Assembly (NCBI GenBank): GCA_964016885.1
Contig: CAXHJY010000317.1
Location: 1-30,965, forward strand
DNA from: Eledone cirrhosa
Taxonomy: Eukaryota
Reading direction: 5' to 3'
Length of the DNA: 30,965 bases
Part shown: in pieces, positions 4,979 to 30,184 of the stretch
How the letters are laid out: every line of letters starts with the position of its first letter
Numbering within the stretch: the stretch's first letter is position 1
Position numbers and translations under genes: made by a program
The notes under the pieces: generated by a model
Database searches by the model: none
The model's input: the letters and a program-made list of their open reading frames with translations, nothing else
What the model was told of the DNA's origin: nothing

Positions 4979-5203
4979 CACACACATATATATATATCAT
5001 CCACATTGCCATTGTATTTATATTTGCATGGGTGGGACAAAATATTTTGAGGCCATATTCTAAGGCTGGATAATACCTTTCCTGTTGACAACTCATACTT
5101 TATTTTTAAGTAAGGTACTTATTTCACTGATCTTTGTCTAATTGTTAAACTTTGGACAAATAAATAGTGTTACTATGAAGACATACATTTACACACAGAG
5201 TCA

Positions 5204-7598
5204 AGACCTCAAGCAGGAGGAGAGTGACTTGGTGGTGGAACAATAAGGTAGATGAAGCAGTCAAGGCCAAGAGACAGGCATGGAAAGAATGGAAGAACGG
5301 GGGGAGCAGGGTACATTACATAGAGACCAAGAGGGAAGCTAGGCGACAAGTATACTTAGCTAGGAGGGAAGCAGAGGATAGAAAATTCAAGCATGTTTTA
5401 CAACGTGAGGACCAGAAACAGGAGGTATTCAAGATTGCGAGGCAGTGTGTCAGAGATAGTTGTGATGTCATTGGAGAGAAGTGTATCCGGAATGATAAAG
5501 GTGAGCTTGCCCTCACAAGTGCTGAGAAGAAAGATGCATGGAAGAGTCATTATGATAGATTACTAAATGAGGAGAATGCATGGGAAGAAGAGACCCTACC
5601 CCACGTAGACCCTATAGAGGGACCAGCAGTACAAGTCAGCGGCAGCGTAGTAAGTAAGGCAATCAGAGATATGAAGATAGGGAAGGCAACCGGTCCATCG
5701 GGTATAGCTGCCGAGATGCTGAAGGCATCTGGGTCTGTAGGTCACACTATAACCACACGTATCGTTAACCAGGTAATACTAGAGGGGGCCATACCAAAAG
5801 ATTGGTGCAGTAGCATCATTGTCAACTGCTACAAAGGTAAAGGCGATGCACTAGATAGAGGAAACTATAGAGGTATAAAGTTGATGGACCAGGTCATGAA
5901 AGTAACAGAAAGAGTTATAGCACAGCTGATTAGGGACCGGGTGAATATAGACGAGATGCAATTTGGGTTTGTTCCAGGGAAAGGCACCACTGATGCGCTC
6001 TTCCTTGTGAGGCAATTACAGGAAAAGTACCTAGCTAAAAGTAAGCCACTCTACTTGGCATTTGTCGACCTTGAGAAAGCCTTTGACAGAGTTCCACGTG
6101 CAGTAATCTGGTGGGCTCTTAGAAAACTAGGAGTAGATGAATGGCTTGTGAAAGCGGTACAAGCCATGTATAGGGGAGCAGTCAGCAAAGTTAGGATTGG
6201 CAATGAGTATAGCGAGGAATTTAGCGTACAGGTTGGGGTCCACCAGGGCTCTGTTCTTAGCCCTCTCCTGTTCATCATAGTCCTGCAGGCAATAACGGAG
6301 GAGTTTAAGACCGGATGCCCATGGGAACTCCTGTATGCTGATGACCTCGCACTCATAGCTGAATCTATGGTAGAACTAGAGAATAAATTCCAAACCTGGA
6401 AGCAGGGACTAGAGAGAAAGGGCCTCAAAGTCAACATGACAAAGACTAAGGTCCTTATAAGTAGACGAGAAAACAGAACCCAGATCCCCTCAGGGAAATG
6501 GCCTTGCTCAGTATGTAGGAAAGGTGTAGGTAGGAACTCCATTCTTTGCCCCAAATGCAAACAATGGGTACACAAGAGATGTAGCGGGATCTCAGGAAGC
6601 TTAATTAAGAATGTAGGATTCACATGCAGCAGCTGTGCTGAAACAGCAAGCAAACAGCCACAGGAAACAAGTACCACCAATCTCTGGGAGGGCCCTGTAG
6701 AAACAGTAGACAGCTTCTGCTACCTAGGTGACCGAATTAGCAACGGAGGTGGGTGCTCAGAAAGTACAATAACTAGGGTAAGAACGGGATGGAAGAAGTT
6801 TAGGGAACTACTACCACTGCTAGCTGCAAAAGGCTTCTCCCTCAGAATGAAAGGCAGACTGTATGATGCGTGTATCCGAACAGCGATGTTGCATGGTAGT
6901 GAGACCTGGGCGCTGAAGGTGGAAGACTTACGTAGATTAGAGAGAAACGAAGCCTGCATGCTCCGATGGATGTGTAACAGTAATATACGTGAACGACAAA
7001 GCATAAATGAATTGAGAGAGAGACTGAGCATAAGAGGAATCAAATGCTGCGTGCAGGAGAGGCGGTTACGCTGGTATGGACATGTGATGCGTATGAAGGA
7101 TGACAGCTGCATAAAAAGGTGCAGAGCACTAGAAGTTGATGGAAACCGCGGAGTGGGGAGACCCAAGATGACTTGGGATGAGGTGATAAAAGCCGACCTT
7201 ACCCAACTACACCTCTCAAAGTCAATGACACACGACCGTGACTTCTGGCGTCACGCAGTAATACAGGGTACCCGACCTCCCATGGGTACATGCTGAAGCA
7301 TATAAACAATATGCCCCCCCCCCCCCCACCGCAAGGTGGTCGTGGAGGTGCCACGGCAAAAAAGCACCCAGCCCACACTGTAAAGTGGACGTGTAGGCGC
7401 CACGAAAAAGCACCCAGCACTCACTGTAAATGAGGTTGGTGTTAGGAAGGGCATCCAACTGTAGAAATCAAGCCAGATCAGTTCCTGTATGAGCAAGGCA
7501 TGGTCAGCCGACCAGACACTGCCCACAACAGGACAACCCGTCTAACCCATGCTAGCGTGGAAGAACGGACGTAAAACGGTGATGATGATGATGATGAT
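5204..7598 (+). mobile_element. 5'-truncated RTE-clade LINE
   Basis: RT ORF, ~300-bp 3' UTR and (GAT)n tail at 7581-7598. Candidate TSD gagtca at 5198-5203 and 7599-7604. Confidence 0.93.
5224..7296 (+). CDS. RTE-type reverse transcriptase (N-terminally truncated, no APE domain) with inserted PHD-type zinc finger
   Basis: 690 open codons. Motifs TWWWN, KATGPSG, NYRGIKL, QFGF, FVDLEKAFD, GVHQGSVLSP, YADD, FCYLG, RRLRWYGHV, GRPK. C4HC3 pattern at 6505-6636. The GTG start is probably an artefact of truncation. Confidence 0.9.
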   Translation: MTWWWNNKVDEAVKAKRQAWKEWKNGGSRVHYIETKREARRQVYLARREAEDRKFKHVLQREDQKQEVFKIARQCVRDSCDVIGEKCIRNDKGELALTSAEKKDAWKSHYDRLLNEENAWEEETLPHVDPIEGPAVQVSGSVVSKAIRDMKIGKATGPSGIAAEMLKASGSVGHTITTRIVNQVILEGAIPKDWCSSIIVNCYKGKGDALDRGNYRGIKLMDQVMKVTERVIAQLIRDRVNIDEMQFGFVPGKGTTDALFLVRQLQEKYLAKSKPLYLAFVDLEKAFDRVPRAVIWWALRKLGVDEWLVKAVQAMYRGAVSKVRIGNEYSEEFSVQVGVHQGSVLSPLLFIIVLQAITEEFKTGCPWELLYADDLALIAESMVELENKFQTWKQGLERKGLKVNMTKTKVLISRRENRTQIPSGKWPCSVCRKGVGRNSILCPKCKQWVHKRCSGISGSLIKNVGFTCSSCAETASKQPQETSTTNLWEGPVETVDSFCYLGDRISNGGGCSESTITRVRTGWKKFRELLPLLAAKGFSLRMKGRLYDACIRTAMLHGSETWALKVEDLRRLERNEACMLRWMCNSNIRERQSINELRERLSIRGIKCCVQERRLRWYGHVMRMKDDSCIKRCRALEVDGNRGVGRPKMTWDEVIKADLTQLHLSKSMTHDRDFWRHAVIQGTRPPMGTC

Positions 7599-7673: not shown

Positions 7674-8413
7674 TGGACAACATGAGAAGATTTCATTTCT
7701 TGAATTTAGGCAATCGCTATTGCGTAATTGCCTTAGAATATTTATCCTTTCTTCAATACACAGTCCACAAGATGGATTGCTCCTTGCGTATGGCTTGGAC
7801 TTAGTGATAACTTTCCATTGAATATAGTAGTCTATACCTGAGTCTTTGAGGGACCATAGTGTCTCGTGAGCTTTGTGGATGATCGTTTGTCCGGGTACCT
7901 AAAGGTCGACTGATGGTTCAGGAAGCGTTCCTTAAATCGGCCCTCTGCCATATTTGATTTGACCTCCTGTGGTCAGTTGGAAGTGACCTCAGCTTCATAA
8001 ACTACAGCGGGTGTGTTGCATTACTTTTGAAGCTTCAGGCTTTCAGCAAGAGCATCCTGGTGGGGTGCCGCTCTTAGGACTGTTGGTGATGTGAGCCTTC
8101 ATGTTCTTAGCGTAAGAGTACCCTAGTTTTACTCTGTGTCTATTAAAGATGGAGCAGTATTTGTGACCTATGGGAAAGTGTTTATCTAAGAAGTCTAACA
8201 TTTTTTTCTTTTTCCTGCATAGTTTTAACATTGAGTGAGAACCAGATAGTTTGTCTATTGTTACGATTTCTTTTCTTATTGCTGTTGTTAGTGGGGGAGT
8301 AAGTAATTGGTTGTGAAAAGCTGCTGTTAGCTAACGCTGTGTTATAGTAGGGGGTCGCTCTGTCAAAGATAGCCTGATTAGAGGAGAGGTTAGAGATTCT
8401 AGTACTGATATTA
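7674..8413 (-). pseudogene. Penelope-like element, C-terminal linker and GIY-YIG endonuclease (inverted arm)
   Basis: Reverse complement of 8464-9194 with scattered substitutions and indels. Confidence 0.85.
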
Positions 8414-8463
8414 CATACACAAGGACTCATGCCACCCTCCCACTGTTTTTAGAAACTTCATAA

Positions 8464-9485
8464 TAATATCAGTACTAGAATCTCTAACCTCTCCTCTAAT
8501 CAGGCTATCTTTGACAGAGCGGCACCCTACTATAACACGGCGTTAGCTAACAGCAGCTTTTCACAACCAATTACTTACTCCCCCACTAACAACAACAACA
8601 ATAAGAAAAGAAATTGTAACAATAGACAAACTATCTGGTTCTCTCCTCCATTCTCACTCAATGTTAAAACTAATGTAGGGAAAAATGTTTTAGCCCTCTT
8701 AGATAGACACTTTCCCATAGGTCACAAATACTGCTCCATCTTTAACAGACACAGAGTAAAACTAGGGTACTCCTGCGTTAAGAACATGAAGGCTCACATC
8801 ACCGACAGTCCTAAGATGTTCTTGCTGAAAGCCTGAAGCTTCTCCCCTTCAAAAGCAATGCAACACACCCGCTGTAGTTTATGAAGCTGAGGTCACTTCC
8901 AACCGACCACAGGAGATCAAATCCAATGTAGGTATGGCGGAGGGCCGATTTAAGGAACGCTTCCTGAACCATCAGTCGACCTTTAGGTACCTGGACAAAC
9001 GATCATCCACAAAGCTCACAAGCCACTATGGTCTCTCAAAGACTCAGGTATAGACTACTACATTCAATGGAAAGCTATCACTAAGGGGCAATCCGTCTTG
9101 TGGACTGTGTATTGAAGAAAGGATAAATATTCTAAGGCGATTACGTAATAGCGATTGCCTAAATTCAAGAAATGAAATCTTCTCATGTTGTCCACATGTC
9201 TGGAAACACCTCTTGCATAACTACAAAGCTCCGGATTGAATAGCAACATCATTCTAATTTTCTAATCAACTTGAACATATTATTCCAGACTCTTGCAGTT
9301 ATCTCCCTTACACCTTTCGCCCGTGGTTTTGTATTGCCTGGGTGAAGTGACCGTTTCTGCGCATGCACATTCATACGGTTGTCCTTCCTGTTCCGTATAA
9401 TCATTACCAGTCTGAGCTGAAGATCTGCTTAAAGTGAAACAATTGTTCTCGGTATGGTGAACTAATTGTTGTGTTACTACTTATA
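8464..9485 (+). mobile_element. 5'-truncated Penelope-like element (probably Naiad-type): linker, GIY-YIG EN, 3' UTR with hammerhead
   Basis: Translation across frameshifts gives IWFSPPFSLNVKTNVGK..LLDRHFP..IFNRHRVKLGYSC..CSC..PLQKQCNTPAVVYEAEV..VGMAEGRFKERFLNH..W..CGLCIEE..LNSRNEIFSCCPH, with stop at 9237-9239. The element ends at a (TA)n tract. Clade assignment is from recalled motifs only. Confidence 0.85.
9404..9460 (+). ncRNA. Minimal type I hammerhead ribozyme (stem II degenerate)
   Basis: Stem I ctgag/ctcgg with ttacca/tggtga extension; CUGAAGA 9417-9423; GAAAC 9436-9440; palindromic stem III acaattgt; triplet GUU 9445-9447. Confidence 0.75.
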
Positions 9486-9638
9486 TTTATATATATATAT
9501 GTATATTTAAAAGTTAAACAAGGTTCAATGAATAAATCAAAGAATGAGTTTTACAATAGATTGGAAGCACTCAACAGATTGGTTTTCCAGAGTTATTAAT
9601 ATTAATTCAAAATATTAACAAAATAGATATTCTTGTGA

Positions 9639-9705
9639 TATTTTATTATACATATTTCAGAGGTACTGAGTTAAGTTCAACAGTACGTCCTAATCAGATA
9701 AAATA
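9639..9705 (-). ncRNA. Type I hammerhead motif, core variant CUGAUUA
   Basis: Stem I tattttat/ataaaata, long stem II gtactg/cagtac, GAAA, quasi-palindromic stem III, triplet AUA. Confidence 0.6.
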
Positions 9706-9819
9706 AGATGATGCATGACATTCCCTGACATATTAGATGGTTAAGATTCAGTCATTAAAATTCACTACCATGACTGAATCTTAACCATCTAATATGTCAG
9801 GATATGTCATGCATCATCT

Positions 9820-9886
9820 TATTTTATCCGATGAGGATGTACTGTTGAACTTAACTCAGTACCTCTGAAATATGTATAATAAAATA
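9820..9886 (+). ncRNA. Type I hammerhead motif, core variant CCGAUGA
   Basis: Same fold as 9639-9705. The consensus of the two arms restores CUGAUGA. Confidence 0.6.
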
Positions 9887-9926
9887 TACTTGATCACAAG
9901 AATATCTATTTTGTTAATATTTTGAA

Positions 9927-9970
<44 letters not shown>

Positions 9971-9974
<4 letters not shown>

Positions 9975-10288
9975 CTTGCAATCGAAAGGTTGTGAGTTCA
10001 ATTCTCAGACTGGGTGATGTGTTGTTACCTTGAGCAAGACACTTTATTTCACATTGCTCAAGTTTACTCAGCTGTAGAAATGAGATGATAGGGACTGGGG
10101 TCCCTATCATTCCACTGCAAAGTGGTCGTGGCGGTGCCACGGCAAAAAAGCACCCAGCACTCACTGTAAAGGAGGTTGCTGTTAGGAAGGGCATCCAGCT
10201 GTAGAAATCAAGCCAGAATCAGTTCCCGTCCCACCCTTGTAAGCAGGGAAAAAGTGGACGTAAAATGAAATGAAAAAAATGAAATGAA
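9971..10288 (+). mobile_element. tRNA-derived SINE with RTE-derived 3' end (5'-truncated)
   Basis: Nearly identical to 14558-14850; B-box gagttcaattc; 3' half matches the LINE 3' UTR; (aaatg)n tail. Confidence 0.88.
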
Positions 10289-10464
10289 TATATATGTTTA
10301 TTATAAACATACAGAATATTTTCGAATATTCTATGTCTATATTCACATATATATCGCTATTTCAGAGCATTTATTCCAATTTCTAATTTCTGCCGGACCG
10401 GCAACCGCTCTTTCAAACCAGTTCCTGTACACAGCTAAGTATTCTATAAGTCTCTAGCTGTGTC

Positions 10465-10554
10465 ATTCTCGATAAAAGCACTGGATATGTAGTCCTGACG
10501 ATTTCTAACGAGAATGAAACGCGTAGATTTACTTCCCTTGCTTTTATCGAGAAT
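10465..10554 (+). ncRNA. Minimal type I hammerhead ribozyme, copy 1
   Basis: Outer 16-bp stem attctcgataaaagca/tgcttttatcgagaat; stem I gtagtc/gatttac; CUGACGA 10495-10501; stem II ttct-aacg-agaa closed by U.U; GAAAC 10516-10520; palindromic stem III acgcgt; GUA triplet, predicted cut after 10525. Confidence 0.88.
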
Positions 10555-10775
10555 CTAATTGTAATACGTGACGTATTCTATTCTATAGCGATTAGGTCTT
10601 CAAAATGTTTATTATAAACATACAGAATATTTTCGAATATTCTATGTCTATATTCACATATATATCGCTATTTCAGAGCATTTATTCCAATTTCTAATTT
10701 CTGCCGGACCGGCAACCGCTCTTTCAAACCAGTTCCTGTACACAGCTAAGTATTCTATAAGTCTCTAGCTGTGTC

Positions 10776-10865
10776 ATTCTCGATAAAAGCACTGGATATG
10801 TAGTCCTGACGATTTCTAACGAGAATGAAACGCGTAGATTTACTTCCCTTGCTTTTATCGAGAAT
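10776..10865 (+). ncRNA. Hammerhead ribozyme, copy 2
   Basis: Same sequence as copy 1 (+311). Confidence 0.88.
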
Positions 10866-11086
10866 CTAATTGTAATACGTGACGTATTCTATTCTATAGC
10901 GATTAGGTCTTCAAAATGTTTATTATAAACATACAGAATATTTTCGAATATTCTATGTCTATATTCACATATATATCGCTATTTCAGAGCATTTATTCCA
11001 ATTTCTAATTTCTGCCGGACCGGCAACCGCTCTTTCAAACCAGTTCCTGTACACAGCTAAGTATTCTATAAGTCTCTAGCTGTGTC

Positions 11087-11176
11087 ATTCTCGATAAAAG
11101 CACTGGATATGTAGTCCTGACGATTTCTAACGAGAATGAAACGCGTAGATTTACTTCCCTTGCTTTTATCGAGAAT
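11087..11176 (+). ncRNA. Hammerhead ribozyme, copy 3
   Basis: Same sequence as copy 1 (+622). Confidence 0.88.
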
Positions 11177-11397
11177 CTAATTGTAATACGTGACGTATTC
11201 TATTCTATAGCGATTAGGTCTTCAAAATGTTTATTATAAACATACAGAATATTTTCGAATATTCTATGTCTATATTCACATATATATCGCTATTTCAGAG
11301 CATTTATTCCAATTTCTAATTTCTGCCGGACCGGCAACCGCTCTTTCAAACCAGTTCCTGTACACAGCTAAGTATTCTATAAGTCTCTAGCTGTGTC

Positions 11398-11487
11398 ATT
11401 CTCGATAAAAGCACTGGATATGTAGTCCTGACGATTTCTAACGAGAATGAAACGCGTAGATTTACTTCCCTTGCTTTTATCGAGAAT
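11398..11487 (+). ncRNA. Hammerhead ribozyme, copy 4
   Basis: Same sequence as copy 1 (+933). Confidence 0.88.
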
Positions 11488-11708
11488 CTAATTGTAATAC
11501 GTGACGTATTCTATTCTATAGCGATTAGGTCTTCAAAATGTTTATTATAAACATACAGAATATTTTCGAATATTCTATGTCTATATTCACATATATATCG
11601 CTATTTCAGAGCATTTATTCCAATTTCTAATTTCTGCCGGACCGGCAACCGCTCTTTCAAACCAGTTCCTGTACACAGCTAAGTATTCTATAAGTCTCTA
11701 GCTGTGTC

Positions 11709-11798
11709 ATTCTCGATAAAAGCACTGGATATGTAGTCCTGACGATTTCTAACGAGAATGAAACGCGTAGATTTACTTCCCTTGCTTTTATCGAGAAT
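11709..11798 (+). ncRNA. Hammerhead ribozyme, copy 5
   Basis: Same sequence as copy 1 (+1244). Confidence 0.88.
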
Positions 11799-12019
11799 CT
11801 AATTGTAATACGTGACGTATTCTATTCTATAGCGATTAGGTCTTCAAAATGTTTATTATAAACATACAGAATATTTTCGAATATTCTATGTCTATATTCA
11901 CATATATATCGCTATTTCAGAGCATTTATTCCAATTTCTAATTTCTGCCGGACCGGCAACCGCTCTTTCAAACCAGTTCCTGTACACAGCTAAGTATTCT
12001 ATAAGTCTCTAGCTGTGTC

Positions 12020-12109
12020 ATTCTCGATAAAAGCACTGGATATGTAGTCCTGACGATTTCTAACGAGAATGAAACGCGTAGATTTACTTCCCTTGCTTTT
12101 ATCGAGAAT
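12020..12109 (+). ncRNA. Hammerhead ribozyme, copy 6
   Basis: Same sequence as copy 1 (+1555). Confidence 0.88.
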
Positions 12110-12330
12110 CTAATTGTAATACGTGACGTATTCTATTCTATAGCGATTAGGTCTTCAAAATGTTTATTATAAACATACAGAATATTTTCGAATATTCTAT
12201 GTCTATATTCACATATATATCGCTATTTCAGAGCATTTATTCCAATTTCTAATTTCTGCCGGACCGGCAACCGCTCTTTCAAACCAGTTCCTGTACACAG
12301 CTAAGTATTCTATAAGTCTCTAGCTGTGTC

Positions 12331-12420
12331 ATTCTCGATAAAAGCACTGGATATGTAGTCCTGACGATTTCTAACGAGAATGAAACGCGTAGATTTACTT
12401 CCCTTGCTTTTATCGAGAAT
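12331..12420 (+). ncRNA. Hammerhead ribozyme, copy 7
   Basis: Same sequence as copy 1 (+1866). Confidence 0.88.
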
Positions 12421-13049
12421 CTAATTGTAATACGTGACGTATTCTATTCTATAGCGATTAGGTCTTCAAAATGTTTATTATAAACATACAGAATATTTTC
12501 GAATATTCTATGTCTATATTCACATATATATCGCTATTTCAGAGCATTTATTCCAATTTCGAATATATATATATATATATATATGCACACATACACACAT
12601 GTAAAAATACCATTTCATGAAAGAATAAGTGGAAGCTGTACAATTTGAAAAACTCTCAAATTTTACTCACAACTCTTGAAACCCTTGCCTTTTTATTTTT
12701 TTTTATCAAGAAATATCCCCAGAATATTTTAGGGAACCCTAGGTCAGAGATCATTAAAACAAATTAAAATATCTTCTCTGATACACTGGATTCATTTCAC
12801 ATGCTCAGCTTACATACACATATATATATATATTTTTTCCCATCTATTTTTCTTTTCTTTCCCTGCCTCTTTCTCCCAGCAGCAGATGTGTTACTATCAT
12901 AGTTACCATTGCTCCCTCTACAATGCCTTTTCTGACATACTCTCACATCCTTCTCTCCTTTCCTCCCACTTTTCACCCTACCAAGGACACACCAACCTCT
13001 TTGCATTCAGGCCATCATATAATCTTCCTTGTGCACTCTGTAAGTAGTT

Positions 13050-13812: not shown

Positions 13813-14529
13813 TATTACATTCTGTAACAATGGGAAATAGTTCATATCAAATTGAAATGTATGTCTGTGTTCAGTGCTGTAAGTATGTTGCATGGTAATT
13901 TGTATTTAATTGTGGTGGTGTTGTAATATAGAGATTTGTTTTAAGTGTTTGAATTTCAGTAGTATAGAAGGTGTGCAGTGCTATGTAAGTGGGAAAAGCA
14001 GAAGTAGTTATGTAGAAAGTATGGAAATCAATGTCAAGGTGCTTGAAAATCTAGTGAATTCATTGTTTCCACTTAGAAAGGAGTTGACTTTTCAGATGTA
14101 GGCATTCTTTAAAAGTGTCATTCTTAAAGTTCAGGTAATTATTTGCAGAGGACAAACCTTGTAAAATCCTGAATTTTTTACTGATAACATCTTATTTTAG
14201 AGATAACATCTCTTGGCACCAGTATCTTCAAACTCGTCCCAGCACCTGATGACTGGGTCTGGAATTTGATTGCCTAACCATGCATTCTGCATCACTGTGC
14301 ACAATCTGGGGAAATGGGCATGACTGCACCTTGAAACTGAAGGTAGAGCTTTTTGTTCTGTGTATTAATAATAATAATAATTATATATATATATGTATAT
14401 ATATATTATACTTTGGGAGGGTCATGCTGCAAATAAAAACACATGCGCCTGTTGGTTTTCACTTTAATTTATTATAAAGTTCCGGTTGGTTCGATAACTG
14501 GATGGTTGTTATATATATATTTATATAAA

Positions 14530-14866
14530 GGAGGCACATGGCTTAGTGGTTAGAGCATTGGCCTTGCAATCGAAAGGTTGTGAGTTCAATTCTCAGACTG
14601 GGTGATGTGTTGTTTCCTTGAGCAAGACACTTTATTTCACATTGCTCCAGTTTACTCAGCTGTAGAAATGAGATGATGGGGTCCCTATCATTCCATTGTA
14701 AAGTGGACGTGTAGGCGCCATGGAAAAAAAGCACCCAGCACTCATTGTAAATGAGGTTGGTGTTAGGAAGGGCATCCAGCTGTAGAAATCAAGCCAGAAT
14801 CAGTTCCTGTCCCACCCTTGCAAGCAGGGAAAAGCGGACGTAAATTGAAATGATAATGATGATGAT
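14530..14866 (+). mobile_element. Full-length tRNA-derived SINE with RTE-derived 3' end
   Basis: Pol III A-box tggcttagtgg (14539-14549) and B-box gagttcaattc (14582-14592); central ccttgagcaagacactt domain; LINE-like 3' half; (GAT)n tail; (TA)n flanks. Confidence 0.9.
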
Positions 14867-14881
14867 TATATATATATATTA

Positions 14882-16162: not shown

Positions 16163-16187
<25 letters not shown>

Positions 16188-16194
<7 letters not shown>

Positions 16195-16364
16195 ATATAG
16201 AAATGGCTTCTACAGGACTAGAACTGTTTCATTCAAAGGAAATCATCAGGCTTCGAATGAAACAGTTCTAGCCCTGTAGAAGCCATTTCTATATTAAATA
16301 TTTATACTCTGCTATGTATTGAGTACCTTACTTAATGTGGTTACCCCCGATTGAACCCGGGATA

Positions 16365-19165: not shown

Positions 19166-21094
19166 ATCATCATCATTGCTTTTACATCGTCTTTTCCATG
19201 CTGGCTCAGGTTGGGTGGGATCTTTTGAGACAATGTTTTACAGCCAGATGCCCTCCCTTACACCAATGTTTACAACACACGGAGATATGGTGTACCTATT
19301 CTAAACTGGATACGCATGGTCCTTCTCAGCATGGCATCTCTCTACTCATTGCATTCTTTTGTCATCTCCTTTGTGAGTCTCAGCAATTTGAGGTTAGCTT
19401 TCACAGCTTCAGCCCAGGTCTTCCTTGGTCTACCTGTAGTGTGACTTCCTTCCACTGGAATTTCCTGGCACTTCTTCACCTTGTAGACATCATCCATGTT
19501 GATCACATGTCCATACCAATTAAGTTTTCTCTCCTGCACACCATCTCCGATTCCCCTTAAACCCAGCTTCTCCCTCAACTCAACCAAGCTCTGCTTTTCT
19601 CTCACACTTACATTGCATATCTAACAAAGCATGATTGCTTCAGTTCTCTCCAGTCTATGCGTGTCCTCTGCAGTCATAGACCATGTTTCACTATCATGCA
19701 GTATCGCAGTTTGCACACAGGCATCATACAGTTGTCCTTTTGTATGTAGGGAGAAACCTTTTTTGGTCAACAGTGGGAATAGCTCTCTAAACTTCTTCCA
19801 TCCTAACCCTATTCTAGCTATTATGCTCTTAGAGCATCCTCCTCTATTGCTAATTAAATTGCCTTGATAGCAGAAGCTATCAACCACTTCAATGGGCCCT
19901 TCCTGAAACTGGAAAAGATTTATATCATTGGCGCTCTTCCCCTCATTTACCCATGCACATCTTCTACAGAAAAAAATTTTCTCTTCCTGTTAATCTACTT
20001 GTTATCCTACTACCTCTCTTATCTACCCAAGATTTACATTGTGTACATCGTATGGAGTTTATGCCTACTCCTCCTTTTCTACATACTGAGCAGGGCCACT
20101 TCCATGAAGAAATAAAGGTCCTATCTTCTCTCCTACTCATTAACACTTTAGTTTTGGCTAAGTTTTCTCTCAGACCTGCTGATCTGAAATTCCATAGTCG
20201 GAAGTTATTTTCTAATTCTTTTATGGATTCGGTTATAAAGACCAAATCATCTGCATAGAGAAGTTCCCATGGAAAGCACATTTAAACTCCTCTGTTATGG
20301 CCTGAAGAACTATGATGAATTGTAGTGTGCTAAGAACCGAACCTTGATGAACTCCTACCTGTACTTTGAATTCCTCGCTACACTCACAGTTCCTCTATAC
20401 ATAGCTTCCACTGCTCTCACAAGCCATTCTTCTACACCTAATTTCCTTAAAAACCACCAGATAATAGATCAACATACTCTGACAAAGGCCTTTTCTAGAT
20501 CAACAAAAGCTAAATATAGTGGCTTATTTTTGGCTAGGAACTTCTCTTGCAGTTGCCACACTAAGAAGAGGGCATCTGTAGTACTTTTCCCAGGCATGAA
20601 ACCAAACTGCATCTCATCTATTTTGACTCTTTCCCTAATTAGCTGCACTATAACTCTTTCTGTCACTGTCATAACTTGGTCCTTTTGTTTTATTCCTCTA
20701 TAGTTGCTCCTTTCTAGAACATCACCTTTGCCCTTGTAGCAGTTTATGATTGTACTACTGCACCTGTCATTGGGTCCTGTACTCTGTCCTGTACTATCTG
20801 ATTGACTATGTGGGTTACTAGTTTGACTCCTACTTCTCCCAATGCTTTTAATATCTCAGCAGCTAGCTCTGATGGTCCCACAGCTTTACCATCCTTCATC
20901 TCTTAGATTGTTTCTCTATAGCTGATCCTGCTGTTGGATAGGCTGGGGTAGTTTCTCTTCCTTCTGTATAACCCCTAGATTCATCAGTCTCTCATAGTAA
21001 CATTTCCAGGCCTCTTTCTTTTGAGCATCAGTGGTGCTAAATGCATTGGTGTCATTTATAACACACTTTTCCCTAACAACATATTGATTTACAC
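19166..21094 (-). pseudogene. Decayed RTE LINE, RT/PHD and 3' part
   Basis: ORF fragments QFGFMPGKSTTDALFL, FVDLEKAF, PWELLYADD, WPCSVCRKG, GWKKFRELF, WYGHV parallel the 5224-7296 protein; (GAT)n tail at 19166-19177. Confidence 0.92.
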
Positions 21095-25890: not shown

Positions 25891-25989
25891 AAACAGAACA
25901 CACAGACACACACATGCACAAACACACATACACAAACTCACACACACACACATATATATTTATAAAGCTGAAGGTCGTATGTATATATG

Positions 25990-26259
25990 TGTGGGTATGG
26001 TGCGGTGTGCGGTGGCCGGAAGCTGGGGAGTGCTCGACCGGAAGAGTGCTTGACCGGAAGGGTGCTTGGCCGGAAGGGTGCTCGACCGGAAGGGCCAGCA
26101 GATCGGTCTCTCTCTAGTGGTGACCACGAACGGTGTGGACGCGAGCTTGGCAGCTCCCGGGTGTTAATAAGTTGGACGCACGTGGAAGAGGAGAAACCAG
26201 CCTTGGGATTTAACGGTGCCTATGAAAAGCGGTAAGTGAGATAGCTTTTTCTAACCACA
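25990..26259 (+). repeat. 5' LTR (270 bp)
   Basis: TG...CA ends; four 16-bp internal repeats. Confidence 0.95.
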
Positions 26260-26394
26260 AGCTATTTAGGCACTGGAAACTGAGATCTGATTGAAAAAAA
26301 AAAAAAAAAACTTTCTCGAAAACAAAGCTACTGGAAAAACAGAGAGGAGTCTGTTGGGTTTTTTTTTATTACGTACCGCAAGACAAATTAGGAT

Positions 26395-27156
26395 ATGGTG
26401 ACGAGACTACGAACGAGTGAAGCGATTAGGGCATTTACTGGTGAAGGCGATGTTCTCGCTTGGCTGCGAAAAGTCCGGCTGATCGCAAGCTTACAGAAGA
26501 TAGAAGATGTGGCTGGCCTCATGGCACTGTACCTCGAGGGGGACGCGTTGGTACTCTTCCTTGAGTTAGATGAACACAGCCAAAGGGATGCGCAAAAGAT
26601 TGAGAGGCGCATGGTGGAAGCGTTCGCAGAGGGACTGTTAGCCGCTTTTGCTAAGCTGGCAAGAATTAGATGGAACGGCGAACGCGTTGACATTTTCGCA
26701 GCGGAAATAAGGCGATTGGCCATGTTGGCTGGATATCAGGTGGAATGCGAACGCACGGTGCGGTTGGCGTTCATAAATGGATTTCCAGACGACATAACGG
26801 TGAAACTGCAGCAAGTCCCGGGTTACAAAGAAATGGAGATGTGTTCACTGGTGGAACAAGCCCTGATCATAGCAGAAGATGCCAAGAAGAGTGTCGCGGC
26901 GATAGCAACTACAGAGGCTCAAGACAGCTGGCAGTGAAATGGTGAAAGGGAGGCAACCACAGCACGCGGTCGCCCGCGAACGTTTAGCGGTCGCTGTTTT
27001 AGGTGCCAAGGCCCGCACATGGCGAGAGACTGTAGAGAGTCAAGGCCGGAAATAATATGCTATCGGTGTAAGCAACCAGGCCACATCGCTACTAACTGCG
27101 ACCAGGGAAACGATCCAAGGGGAATTACTGCGCCGGTAGTTGCCCCTTACGAGTAG
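26395..27156 (+). pseudogene. gag: Gag with premature TGA at 26935-26937 and two zinc knuckles
   Basis: In frame after the stop: CFRCQGPHMARDC and CYRCKQPGHIATNC; TAG at 27154-27156. Confidence 0.88.
27105..27111 (+). other. -1 ribosomal frameshift slippery site G GGA AAC
   Basis: Correct X XXY YYZ phase in gag; the -1 frame is open through the protease motif RALVDTGC (27201). Confidence 0.75.
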
Positions 27157-29906
27157 AGGCGCTGCCCGTGGTGGAAGTCTTCGTGAGGGGAAAGCCACAG
27201 CGAGCCCTCGTGGACACGGGCTGTACGACGACACAGGTGACCGCGGGGGTGGTGGAGAGGGAAGAGCAGCGTAAGGGCAGTCGACGGCAGGAAAATTGAA
27301 TGCCGTGGTTGCAACGAGGTGGAGATGGCGGTACAGGGAAGGAAAATAAGGCTTTCTGCCATCGTAGTTGACAACGTGGTGGATGGGATCGGCGTGGTTA
27401 TGGGCATGGACGCAATTGGCCGTCTAGGAGGCGTCACAGTGAACAACGTCGGTGTGTCGTTTGGCGGCGCTGCATCGGTATGCGCTGTGAGTACGCGACA
27501 GGAGAACCAGAAGGCCCACGAGGAGAAACACCCCGCTTACACTGTGCAGGACAAAGACTTCAAGGCCGTGTTCGATGGGCAGCGATGGGTTGTTGAGTGG
27601 TACTGGAAGGGAGAACCACCAACACTGAAGACCAAAGTGGGCTGCTATCAACACATATTGAAGGGAGACATTAGGAGCGAGTTCGAGCGAGAGGTAGAGA
27701 GATGGATTGAGGAGGGCATACTGCTTCCCTGGAAAGAGGAGGTGAAGTGCGGAGTATTGCCGTTAATGGCGGTGGCGCAACCCACGAAGATCAAGGTGAG
27801 GCCGGTACTGGACTTTCGGGAGCTGAACGAGCATGTGTCATGCCACACGGGTGGCGTGGTCACGGATGTCTGTGGAGAAACCCTGCGTGAGTGGAGATGC
27901 ATGACGGGGGGCTCAGCAATCGTAGATCTAAAGTTGGCATACTTGCAATTGCATATAGATGAGAAGCTCTGGCAGTATCAGCTGGTCAGGTATAAGGGCC
28001 GGACATATTGCCTGACCAGGCTAGGTTTCGGGCTGAGCTCCGCACCGAAGATCATGGCGGTGGTCAAGACCATTCTGGGAAAGGCCGACAAGATGAAGAG
28101 AGCCACTAACTCCTACATTGACGACATCCTAGTGGACGAGTCTGTAGTGTAGGCAGCGGGGGTCACGAGCCATTTACAGGGGTATGGACTGGCTGCGAAG
28201 CCGTCAGAAGCGTTGGAGGGCGGAGCCGCGCTGGGACTTAGGCTACGGTGAGACAGGACGGGCGTCTTGGTATTCCAGAGGGTAAATGAAGTTCCAGAAC
28301 TGGGCCCAAGTATGAGTAGGCGGGAGCTTTTCTCGGTGTGTGGAAAGTTGGTGGGTCACTACCCGATTGCTGGGTGGCTCCGGACGGCATGCAGCTATGT
28401 CAAGAGACGAACGGGAGGGGTGACTTGGAGTGACAGAGTGGGAGAGAGGACGGTGGCCATGATGCAGGAGATCGTGGAGAGGGTGAAGGCCGACGACCCA
28501 GTGCGGGGACGCTGGTATGTTCCCAAATCGCAGAGCGGGACTGTATGGTGCGATGCCAGCAGCATAGCGCTGGGTTTCACGTTGGAGATAGGAGGTGTTG
28601 AGGTCGAGGATGCAGCCTGGCTTAGGAAGAAGGACAACTGCAACCACATCAATGTGGCCGAACTGGACGCAGTGTTGAGAGGGGTGAACTGGACGCAGTG
28701 TTGAGAGGACTGCGCACCATCGAGATATGCACCGACTCGGCTACTGTACTCGGATGGGTGGGGTGAGATCAGTGAGAAGAGAGTCCGAACGAGAGGGGCG
28801 GCGAAGATGCTGATAAAGCGCCGCCTGGGAACTTCAGGAGAGCTGGCCACCGAGTTCGACCTGAGGCTGAGCGTAGTTTTAACCAGGGTGAAGAAAGCCT
28901 GGATGGAAGCGCCGGAGGAGGTAGAAGATGAGATAGCTGCCGTGTGTCGGCTGACCGAGTCGGATCTGAAAAGGTTGCATGACATGCACCACATGGGAGT
29001 GGATAGGACCCTGTTCCTAGCCAGGAGAATCGACTCGGACGTCAACAGACACAGTGTTCAAAGGGTGGTTAGAGGCTGCGTCCGATATCAGTCCATTGAT
29101 CCCGCCCCGGATGTGCACAAAACGGGACCCTCCCGGTGGATCGCGACTTGAAGCGATTGGCAGTGGATGTAACGCACTACCGACAGGGAACGTACCTCTC
29201 GATGGTCGACTGTAGACCAGGACGGATGGCGATATGGAGGGAGATGAAGACTGGAACAGCCGAGGAAATCATGCGGACGTTGAGAGAGGTATTCTTGGAG
29301 CGGGGCCCTGTGGACGAACTGCTGATGGACAACAGCGCAGCGTTCCGCTCGGAGGCGCTGAGGGAGATGCTCGATGGATGGAAGGTGGACCATTTCTTCA
29401 GAGCAGCGCACAGGCCAGAATGGAATTGTGGAGCGACACCACCGGACGATCAAGGCGATGGCGGAGCGGGGCCATATCTCACGAATGGAGGCAGTGTTCT
29501 GGTACAACATGTCCCCTTGGATGGGACAGGTTGAGGAATCGGTGCCACACAGAGCAGTATTCAGATACGAGTGGCGGCACCCGTGCACGCCACCACAACG
29601 GCCAGTGGCGAGAGAGAATGCATTCGTGCAGGTGGGCGAAGAAGTCTGGGTTAAGCCCCAGATGCACGTTGCACATCTCAATGGGGAAGGGGAACGGTGA
29701 CGGCCGTAAATTCCAGAACAATGTGTCCGTGGACAGAGTACCACGTCATGTCCTGGATGTCCGTACAATCATTGTCAACGGACTCCGAGGAAGAGGAAAC
29801 TCAAAGTGCCTCCCCAACACTGCGGAGATCGCAAAGAAGTCGCAAACCACCAACCTGGACAGCAGACTTTCATATGCAGAAGGACGAGGGGGAAATTGAT
29901 CCTTGA
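27111..29906 (+). pseudogene. pol: Pol (PR-RT-RNaseH-IN), multiple stops and frameshifts
   Basis: LVDTGC; VRPVLDFRELN, LGFGLSSAP, YIDD; WCDAS, HINVAELDAV; HDMHHMG, LAVDVTH, LLMDN, NGIVERHHRTIK. Confidence 0.92.
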
Positions 29907-29930
29907 GATCAGGGGGGGGGGGGGGGGGCG

Positions 29931-30184
29931 TGTGGGTATGGTGCGGTGTGCGGTGGCCGGAAGCTGGGGAGTGCTTGACCGGAAGGGTGCTTGGCCGGAA
30001 GGGTGCTCGACCGGAAGGGCCAGCAGATCGGTCTCTCTCTAGTGGTGACCACGAACAGTGTGGACGCAAGCTTGGCAGCTCCCGGGTGTTAATGAGTTGG
30101 ATGCACGTGGAAGAGGAGAAATCAGCAATGGGATTTAGCGGCGCCTATGAAAAGCGGTAAGTGAGATAGCTTTTTCTAACCACA
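29931..30184 (+). repeat. 3' LTR (254 bp)
   Basis: Matches the 5' LTR minus one 16-bp repeat; I count 9 substitutions. Confidence 0.95.

Follow-up and report, generated by a model that had tools for sequence, protein, structure and literature searches.

Paired 3' ends and shared arm haplotypes suggest Penelope-type insertion of a 311-bp hammerhead retrozyme family in Eledone cirrhosa

Introduction

The window analyzed here is a whole unplaced contig of 30,965 bp (CAXHJY010000317.1) from the 3.0-Gb assembly of Eledone cirrhosa (GCA_964016885.1), and it contains a tandem array of a 311-bp unit with a predicted hammerhead ribozyme. This locus raises the question of how a row of identical units came to lie between two copies of a short AT-rich motif. 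A previous sequence-only reading had described the array as a single circularly permuted multimer, flanked by a target-site duplication and left by rolling-circle reverse transcription. In metazoan retrozymes that have no long terminal repeats (non-LTR retrozymes), circles and cleavage have been demonstrated (PMC7229834, Cervera and de la Pena 2020), and the synthesis of multimeric cDNA from a circle with a Penelope-like reverse transcriptase (RT) as helper has already been proposed (PMC7229834, PMC7761336, 10.64898/2026.07.22.740005). Local DNA amplification is favored for tandem growth by Li, Clavereau, Pollet 2026 (10.64898/2026.07.22.740005), and a review of retrozymes states that no motif identifies the helper (PMC7761336). 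The means by which animal retrozymes move and the reason for the insertion of Penelope elements as inverted one-tailed pairs are stated to be open questions in the portions of the papers cited here (PMC7229834, PMC7761336, PMC8557442, 10.64898/2026.07.22.740005).

In the family to which the array belongs, most insertions consist of two inverted arms whose 3' ends lie at two fixed internal sites, named A and B, and which have a common haplotype. These footprints make Penelope-type target-primed insertion highly probable, and a circular template appears the likelier one for most arrays. What appears to be new is the genomic footprint (paired 3' sites, arm haplotypes and stagger), the idea of a circle and a Penelope-like helper being already in print.

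Results

The array in the window

The array comprises 2,265 nt (10296–12560), or 7.28 units of 311 bp with no mismatches between units (TRF: 7.3 copies), as the sequence-only reading had it. It is directly flanked on both sides, again in agreement with that reading, by GAATATATAT (10286–10295 and 12561–12570), which occurs elsewhere in the window only once (minus strand, 17910). At the left junction, the 2 nt AT of the flank (10294–10295) continue the periodicity of the unit and constitute a microhomology. The unit has about 36% GC, the array contains no open reading frame (ORF) of 120 aa and is non-coding, and the circular fold of the monomer is better than those of 60 shuffled sequences (z −3.8).

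Seven GAAACGCGTA motifs end at positions 10525+311k, confirming that the first predicted cut lies 230 nt into the array and the last one 169 nt from its end. The cut is predicted after UA, at phase 230 (phase 1 being position 10296). The hammerhead was called from its core letters (CUGACGA...GAAA...UA) and stems: helix I would be formed by GUAGUC/GAUUUAC, the cores by CUGACGA and GAAA, helix II has a U-U base, and helix III is the palindromic ACGCGU. In Rfam searches, the hammerhead had no match at the gathering score or at E<=10. Variants fixed within arrays hit the core only at N7 and mostly keep the pairing of helices I and II, the commonest fixed differences lying 2–3 nt past the cut (phases 232–233); four single-unit changes fall within the core. 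The features of the locus are as follows:

10286..10295, plus strand: left copy of the target-site duplication, the 10-nt GAATATATAT; its last 2 nt, AT, match the unit, and an identical duplication is found at the unrelated insertion C819
10296..12560, plus strand: one-armed retrozyme array of 7.28 units that starts at phase 310-1 (phase 1 = 10296) and stops at phase 88, a 3' end of the site B class
10489..10532, plus strand: first type I hammerhead, with predicted cut after 10525; repeated every 311 nt in 7 copies, the last at 12355–12398
12522..12531, plus strand: site A, phases 50–59 (...UUCACAUAUAUAU), in the last partial unit; second priming site of the family, not an end at the window locus
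12532..12560, plus strand: "tail" between sites A and B; the B end is at phase 88, the commonest end phase of the family being 85 (12557)
12561..12570, plus strand: right copy of the target-site duplication, continuing into (AT)n up to 12584
9973..10295, plus strand: host site outside the element, a dispersed tRNA-like repeat, putatively of short interspersed nuclear element (SINE) type, whose tail enters the (AT)n target

Another copy of the host repeat (14510–14879) bears a weak Rfam tRNA match. No empty allele was found in the assembly, and sample contigs aligned to the locus stop at the AT run; the best flank match, on C1 (90% over 1.7 kb) was discarded as an empty allele, being an older paralogue with another junction. 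In the contigs of one sample, summed depth was 2–7 x 10^5 over the unit versus 5–21 in the flank, figures that represent neither unit number nor strand nor circularity, and the contigs over the unit mostly carried haplotypes other than that of the window. No RNA run was listed among the data sets containing the unit.

A family of two-armed insertions

Genome-wide, the hammerhead core was matched exactly 18,060 times, and unit phase 85 was joined exactly to (AT)n at 1,006 junctions (controls 0 in both cases); both counts are lower bounds, so the family comprises at least 1,006 insertions. Two samples were mapped. The first one consisted of the window and 33 loci from the best matches, part of them drawn from the best 150 of 511, gave 35 elements, and is biased toward long arrays and window-like haplotypes; the second one consisted of 60 junctions from the start of the list of 1,006, all located on C1 and selected for a B end. 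Counting once the locus with a duplicated center (L073), 95 elements were mapped in total. Two arms head-to-head with both 3' ends outward were present in 87 of them, five were complete one-armed elements (the window locus, L036a, L097, L116, and L119), and the other three enter a gap or leave the mapped stretch. The window locus is thus an atypical, one-armed member of its family.

Dispersed mobile copies are evidenced by the 1,006 junctions and by 10–12-nt duplications at six informative sites, the window included. Judging from its sequence, the 311-bp family is a young non-LTR retrozyme that has the sequence features of the metazoan class, its cleavage and circles being predicted.

Sister retrozyme families of about 320 bp (L078, L110, L129, L142, L146, L157–L186) have the tail region and the kinds of ends in common with this family and differ in the hammerhead; they show compensated hairpins and variant hammerhead cores, one of them U3-A8 in what we take to be the usual numbering. 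Of 17 matches in runs labeled as other organisms, two were aligned to the window (12250–13030): runs X4 and X7 each contain one 340-nt contig that wraps a whole 310-nt unit and has no flank, and whose haplotype is also present as arrays in the Eledone genome. It may derive from carry-over of a highly abundant repeat, from diet, or from a relative.

Fixed 3' ends and free 5' ends

The 3' ends fall into two clusters about 35 nt apart, A (phases 41–59) and B (phases 78–93). Ends at site A are chiefly at phase 50 (40 ends) or 59 (24 ends), in the AUAUAUAU stretch, and those at site B chiefly at phase 85. Among 87 pairs, 81 combined one A and one B end, none was A/A or B/B, four had an odd end (L037, L040, L042, and L047), and two had an end unseen; in the set selected without regard to ends, 28 of 33 pairs were A/B. 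The 5' ends were uniform across the unit (170 arms, Kolmogorov–Smirnov p 0.36), and neither pile-up nor run-off was seen at the cut site (7/80 for A and 1/84 for B, versus 5.4 and 5.7 expected). Taken at the level of sequence, paired fixed 3' sites are the "tail" signature of Penelope elements. The variable permutation points anticipated by the sequence-only reading were therefore found for the 5' ends but not for the 3' ends, which occupy two internal sites, that of the window being at phase 88. That reading had also taken the fact that neither end of the window array matches the cut as a footprint of a circle; since Penelope-type internal initiation followed by 5' truncation suffices to place the ends off the cut, this feature alone is not evidence for a circle.

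The center junctions (n=85) showed microhomology in 55 cases, were blunt in eight, and contained inserts in 22, and none of them showed mirror symmetry at the inversion point. Fold-back self-priming of the second arm was rejected, since the two 5' phases are independent (8/85 within 10 nt, 5.7 expected) and either arm may be the longer one (33 and 47 of 80). One two-armed element with the window haplotype (L040, 3494–4788) ends off the usual sites, at phases 118 and 148, 30 nt apart, hinting that end spacing may be set by the enzyme.

Target and duplication

The 10 nt adjoining the element were pure (AT) at 70 left and 74 right junctions of 89. Since (AT)n conceals duplications, the window locus is useful, because a G in its target makes the duplication readable. 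A sharper test was based on ends at phase 88, of which there are 37 genome-wide, 28 of them followed by plain AT. Phase-88 ends followed by GAAT were found only at the window locus and at C819, a two-armed array whose far end likewise has GAATATATATA; C819 was discarded as a second copy of the window locus because both its haplotype and its flanks differ. At the seven other phase-88 sites, the predicted duplications were matched in four cases at 10–12 nt (L238, L239, L242, and L243), with background match rates of 0, 4, 0, 0, and 1 of 80.

Three results count against a duplication. The family-wide test gave no excess (14 versus a shuffled mean of 16), as expected if (AT)n conceals it. Three of the seven predicted sites were unmatched: the motif lies further away in L244, L240 has no match, and the far end of L241 is lost in degraded AT sequence. 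Moreover, all but one of the four matches are situated in interrupted microsatellites that contain the motif repeatedly, so these three weigh less. Taking all this together, the target-site duplication claimed by the sequence-only reading for the window is likely to be real, with a stagger of 10–12 nt.

The template of the arrays

Haplotypes were compared in the 70 pairs with all phases covered in both arms (L073 and L032 were left out). The majority haplotype was common to both arms in 66 of them, versus a mean of 4.4 and a maximum of 12 in 10,000 permutations, and 31 haplotypes were distinguished, 21 of which were seen once. Minor variants amounted to 141 in 316 kb (0.45 per kb) and were mostly confined to one arm (61 unshared rows versus 10 shared rows from two arrays). 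Within arms, 1,047 cut-site junctions were crossed, with seven minor events at phases 226–236. Donor inversion points carried within arms were not found, save for one local junction duplication (L073), and no clear periodic variants indicating multimer circles were detected (two units seven apart in L085, irregular in L108). These patterns favor a single monomer template over which two polymerases passed again and again, and the array-wide haplotypes together with the lack of run-off at the cut site are the reason why this template is read as a circle. For the family, the sequence-only reading is hence supported in part, namely in its reverse transcription into a staggered cut and in its repeated reading of a template; its circle is not implied by the end phases.

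Several observations weigh against a monomer circle copied by a Penelope-like helper. A single active donor per cell would also yield matching arms. In L121 (2100–8501), two units of one haplotype are followed by a second haplotype, in register in both arms, and in L104 (7222–8554) a single-unit variant is common to both arms, also in register; for these mosaics a monomer circle is insufficient without a joint template switch. L095 (1076–5094) has a haplotype switch confined to one of its arms, which ends at phase 43, beside site A; twin priming on a linear multimer would produce such an arm. The 5' ends of B arms lie near site A in 11 of 84 cases (5.7 were expected; post hoc p 0.026, p 0.81 in a scan test), and arm lengths correlate in the unbiased second sample (rho 0.42, n 52) and not in the first, a correlation also expected from a finite template common to both arms. 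The hammerhead has a minimal helix III, and uncleaved RNA is the chief substrate in a Penelope in vitro assay (PMC11167929). Finally, no helper element bearing the unit sequence turned up in the material compared, namely some 600 kb of flanking sequence, 30 motif loci, and two of many Penelope-like families. Judging from the variant patterns, at least a minority of insertions came from multimers or by joint template switch.

The strongest alternative, which we nevertheless consider unlikely, is a Penelope-type insertion in which an existing array's long multimeric transcript, uncleaved or cleaved in part, serves as template and is primed at A and B near its 3' part. It would account for the in-register mosaics of L121 and L104, for L095 and for the arm-length correlation, and it is in line with the weak helix III, with the low cleavage reported for hammerheads of this kind (PMC4209133), with the cleavage of one of nine Xenopus elements (10.64898/2026.07.22.740005), and with the dominance of unprocessed RNA in vitro (PMC11167929). 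However, arrays copied from such transcripts could only shorten, and the fixation of 31 haplotypes over arms of up to 19 units would need a one-unit bottleneck followed by regrowth. Donor variants, which on this view would often be shared in register, were so in two of 85 arrays. If the template had a cut 5' end or a fixed start, 5' ends would accumulate at a single phase, and read-through would bring along inversion points from the donor; neither effect was seen. Furthermore, the core letters are kept in every array-fixed haplotype, as if spread requires cleavage.

It is improbable that the template was instead a linear monomer left by cleavage (a nicked circle kept together by helix I and the long stem), on which the polymerase jumps from the 5' end to the 3' end in the absence of a covalent circle. 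A bacterial defense RT reportedly makes rolling-circle-like products without a covalent circle, and is said to do so by jumping. Such a template would yield equal array-wide homogeneity and would readily allow the joint switch in L121; the cut is bracketed by the long stem and adjoined by the commonest fixed differences. On the other hand, the junctions were crossed with hardly any per-round errors, and arms ending at the cut are not in excess.

Slightly less probable still is a short insertion later expanded at the DNA level by unequal exchange or slippage, or an array homogenized or inflated by the assembler: three long arrays with scattered repeated variants resemble products of later exchange (L084, L085, and L108), local amplification is a model discussed in the literature (10.64898/2026.07.22.740005), and the unit number of the window, an unplaced contig, is known from the assembly alone, but both inverted arms would have to expand and homogenize to one private haplotype at hundreds of young loci, the assembly retains single-unit variants and separate haplotypes per array, and the summed depth of unit versus flank in one sample, although not a copy number, fits the order expected from 18,000 cores.

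Penelope-like elements and other sequences in the window

Inspection of 30 of 45 motif-variant loci revealed retrozyme units in all cases, and no likeness to the unit was detected in the old Penelope-like family represented at 7674–9480 of the window, in several families from the flanks, or in a young Penelope-like family with an open 1,217-aa frame. This frame has Atlas look-alikes with RT, GIY-YIG, and HTH_animal; it gave no match in Pfam or PDB sequence searches, nor did an 813-aa frame in Pfam. In the roughly 600 kb of flanks, the 30 motif loci, and the two Penelope-like families compared, out of many, kinship of the unit with the pseudo-long terminal repeat (pLTR) of an autonomous family was likewise not seen. 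Insertions of the young family also lie in (AT)n and show the two-arm anatomy, with one short and one long end in 12 of 13 pairs; its tail measures about 45–60 nt. Its sequences indicate that this type of machinery has been recently active in the genome, which is not proof that it moves the 311-bp family. In L208, L214, and L221, the young family is tandem inside one arm with a period of about 4.15 kb, as a circle or an uncut multimer template would give. A 40-nt piece of its short end adjoins (AT)n in the window (14387–14425). L105 (6439–8877, minus strand) contains an open Penelope-like frame of >800 aa, followed by a long 3' region rich in AT, and does not resemble the unit.

The old fragment at 7674–9480 is palindromic, has frames for an RT thumb and an endonuclease, ends in (AT)n, and contains a minimal hammerhead-like motif near 9417; its family is ~85–91% identical, with 44,226 first-look candidates. 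Next to it, a small inverted element between two (AT)n runs (9500–9930), with 118-nt arms and a decayed hammerhead-like core in each, is probably an older two-armed insertion of another family, and 56-nt inverted arms adjoining (AT)n at 16183–16306 may be a short two-armed insertion. The window also contains a 705-aa open RT frame (5179–7296), which we take to be of non-LTR type, with a decayed inverted relative (77%) at ~19600–20900, and a GC-rich block with repeated termini and broken gag/pol-like frames (25989–30019), presumably resembling an LTR retrotransposon.

Discussion

We consider the array to be real and a mechanism of the following kind to be likely from the sequences compared. Arrays would be transcribed, cut by dimeric hammerheads, and ligated into circles. 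A dimeric Penelope-like protein would nick both strands of (AT)n with a 10–12-nt stagger, leaving 3' overhangs, and one DNA end would prime at site B and the other at site A of the same RNA, aided by AU microhomology. Both polymerases would then circle by strand displacement and stop at random, and the two cDNA ends would be joined through microhomology. At the window locus, site B alone would have been used: a circular monomer RNA would have been copied about seven times from this internal start site, and the other overhang would have caught the cDNA end at the 2-nt AT match.

Two DNA ends priming on one RNA are known from LINE-1 twin priming, which gives a 5' inversion joined by microhomology; its second site is variable, and the first cDNA stops there. 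The Eledone family resembles it in having two ends on one RNA and a microhomology-joined inversion, but both of its sites are fixed, at a spacing of 35 nt, and are as a rule passed many times over by each arm.

Endonuclease-positive (EN+) Penelope-like elements are described as having an inverted 5'-truncated copy, a 30–40-bp tail at one end, 8–10-bp duplications, and microsatellite targets (PMC3846280, PMC8557442). The Eledone family is like them in its head-to-head arrangement, its tail at one end only (~35 nt), its short duplication, and its (TA)n target, and unlike them in that it has no ORF and both of its arms are many units long. Its mobilization would thus resemble that of Penelope-like elements, while the family has no ORF for RT plus GIY-YIG and is non-autonomous. 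A self-priming reading has been offered for the inverted copies (PMC3846280), with which the Eledone inversion points, devoid of mirror symmetry, are at variance.

For Anolis Poseidon, two internal RT starts downstream of the hammerhead cut have been described in vitro, which define the tail (Frangieh et al. 2024, PMC11167929), together with nicking and extension of both strands, an AT-rich target preference, and a predicted dimer (PMC11167929). Sites A and B correspond to these two starts (PMC11167929). In Poseidon, the start sites did not differ between strands and priming occurred without homology, whereas in Eledone there is one site per end and AU microhomology (PMC11167929); the main text of that paper does not use the words "circular," "retrozyme," or "duplication" (PMC11167929).

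In common with metazoan retrozymes as described in the portions cited (PMC7229834, PMC7761336, 10.64898/2026.07.22.740005), the family has a non-coding tandem unit within 150–450 bp, a GC content <50%, one type I hammerhead per unit, a duplication >4 bp, a self-paired circular fold, and co-occurrence with Penelope-like elements. Not described in that published text are the family's inverted arrays of two arms, its 3' sites fixed in pairs, its targeting of (AT)n, and the haplotypes that its arms have in common; the family is known from its sequence, whereas circles and cleavage have been demonstrated for published retrozymes. Plant LTR retrozymes, with type III hammerheads in LTRs and a 4-bp duplication, differ from the Eledone family, with its type I hammerhead, tandem units, and 10-nt duplication.

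We did not find a paper describing these footprint rules in the open literature, subscription papers and supplements being outside the search. The family joins the movement of retrozymes and the inverted pairs of Penelope elements by rules that can be counted: each start site has a single arm, each insertion a single haplotype, and the cut a 10–12-nt stagger. Its 311-nt unit is a substrate for a direct test with purified enzyme. As a tentative generalization, to which we give somewhat less than an even chance, Penelope-type retrotransposition would be a double rolling circle, in which a dimer makes a 10–12-nt staggered cut and sets both 3' ends, at two fixed sites, on a single RNA circle made by the hammerhead, thereby making the tandem pLTRs, inverted copy, and one-sided tail of all such elements, as well as retrozyme arrays. 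If this is true, the retrozyme family of E. cirrhosa would be a natural barcoded record of the double rolling-circle reaction.
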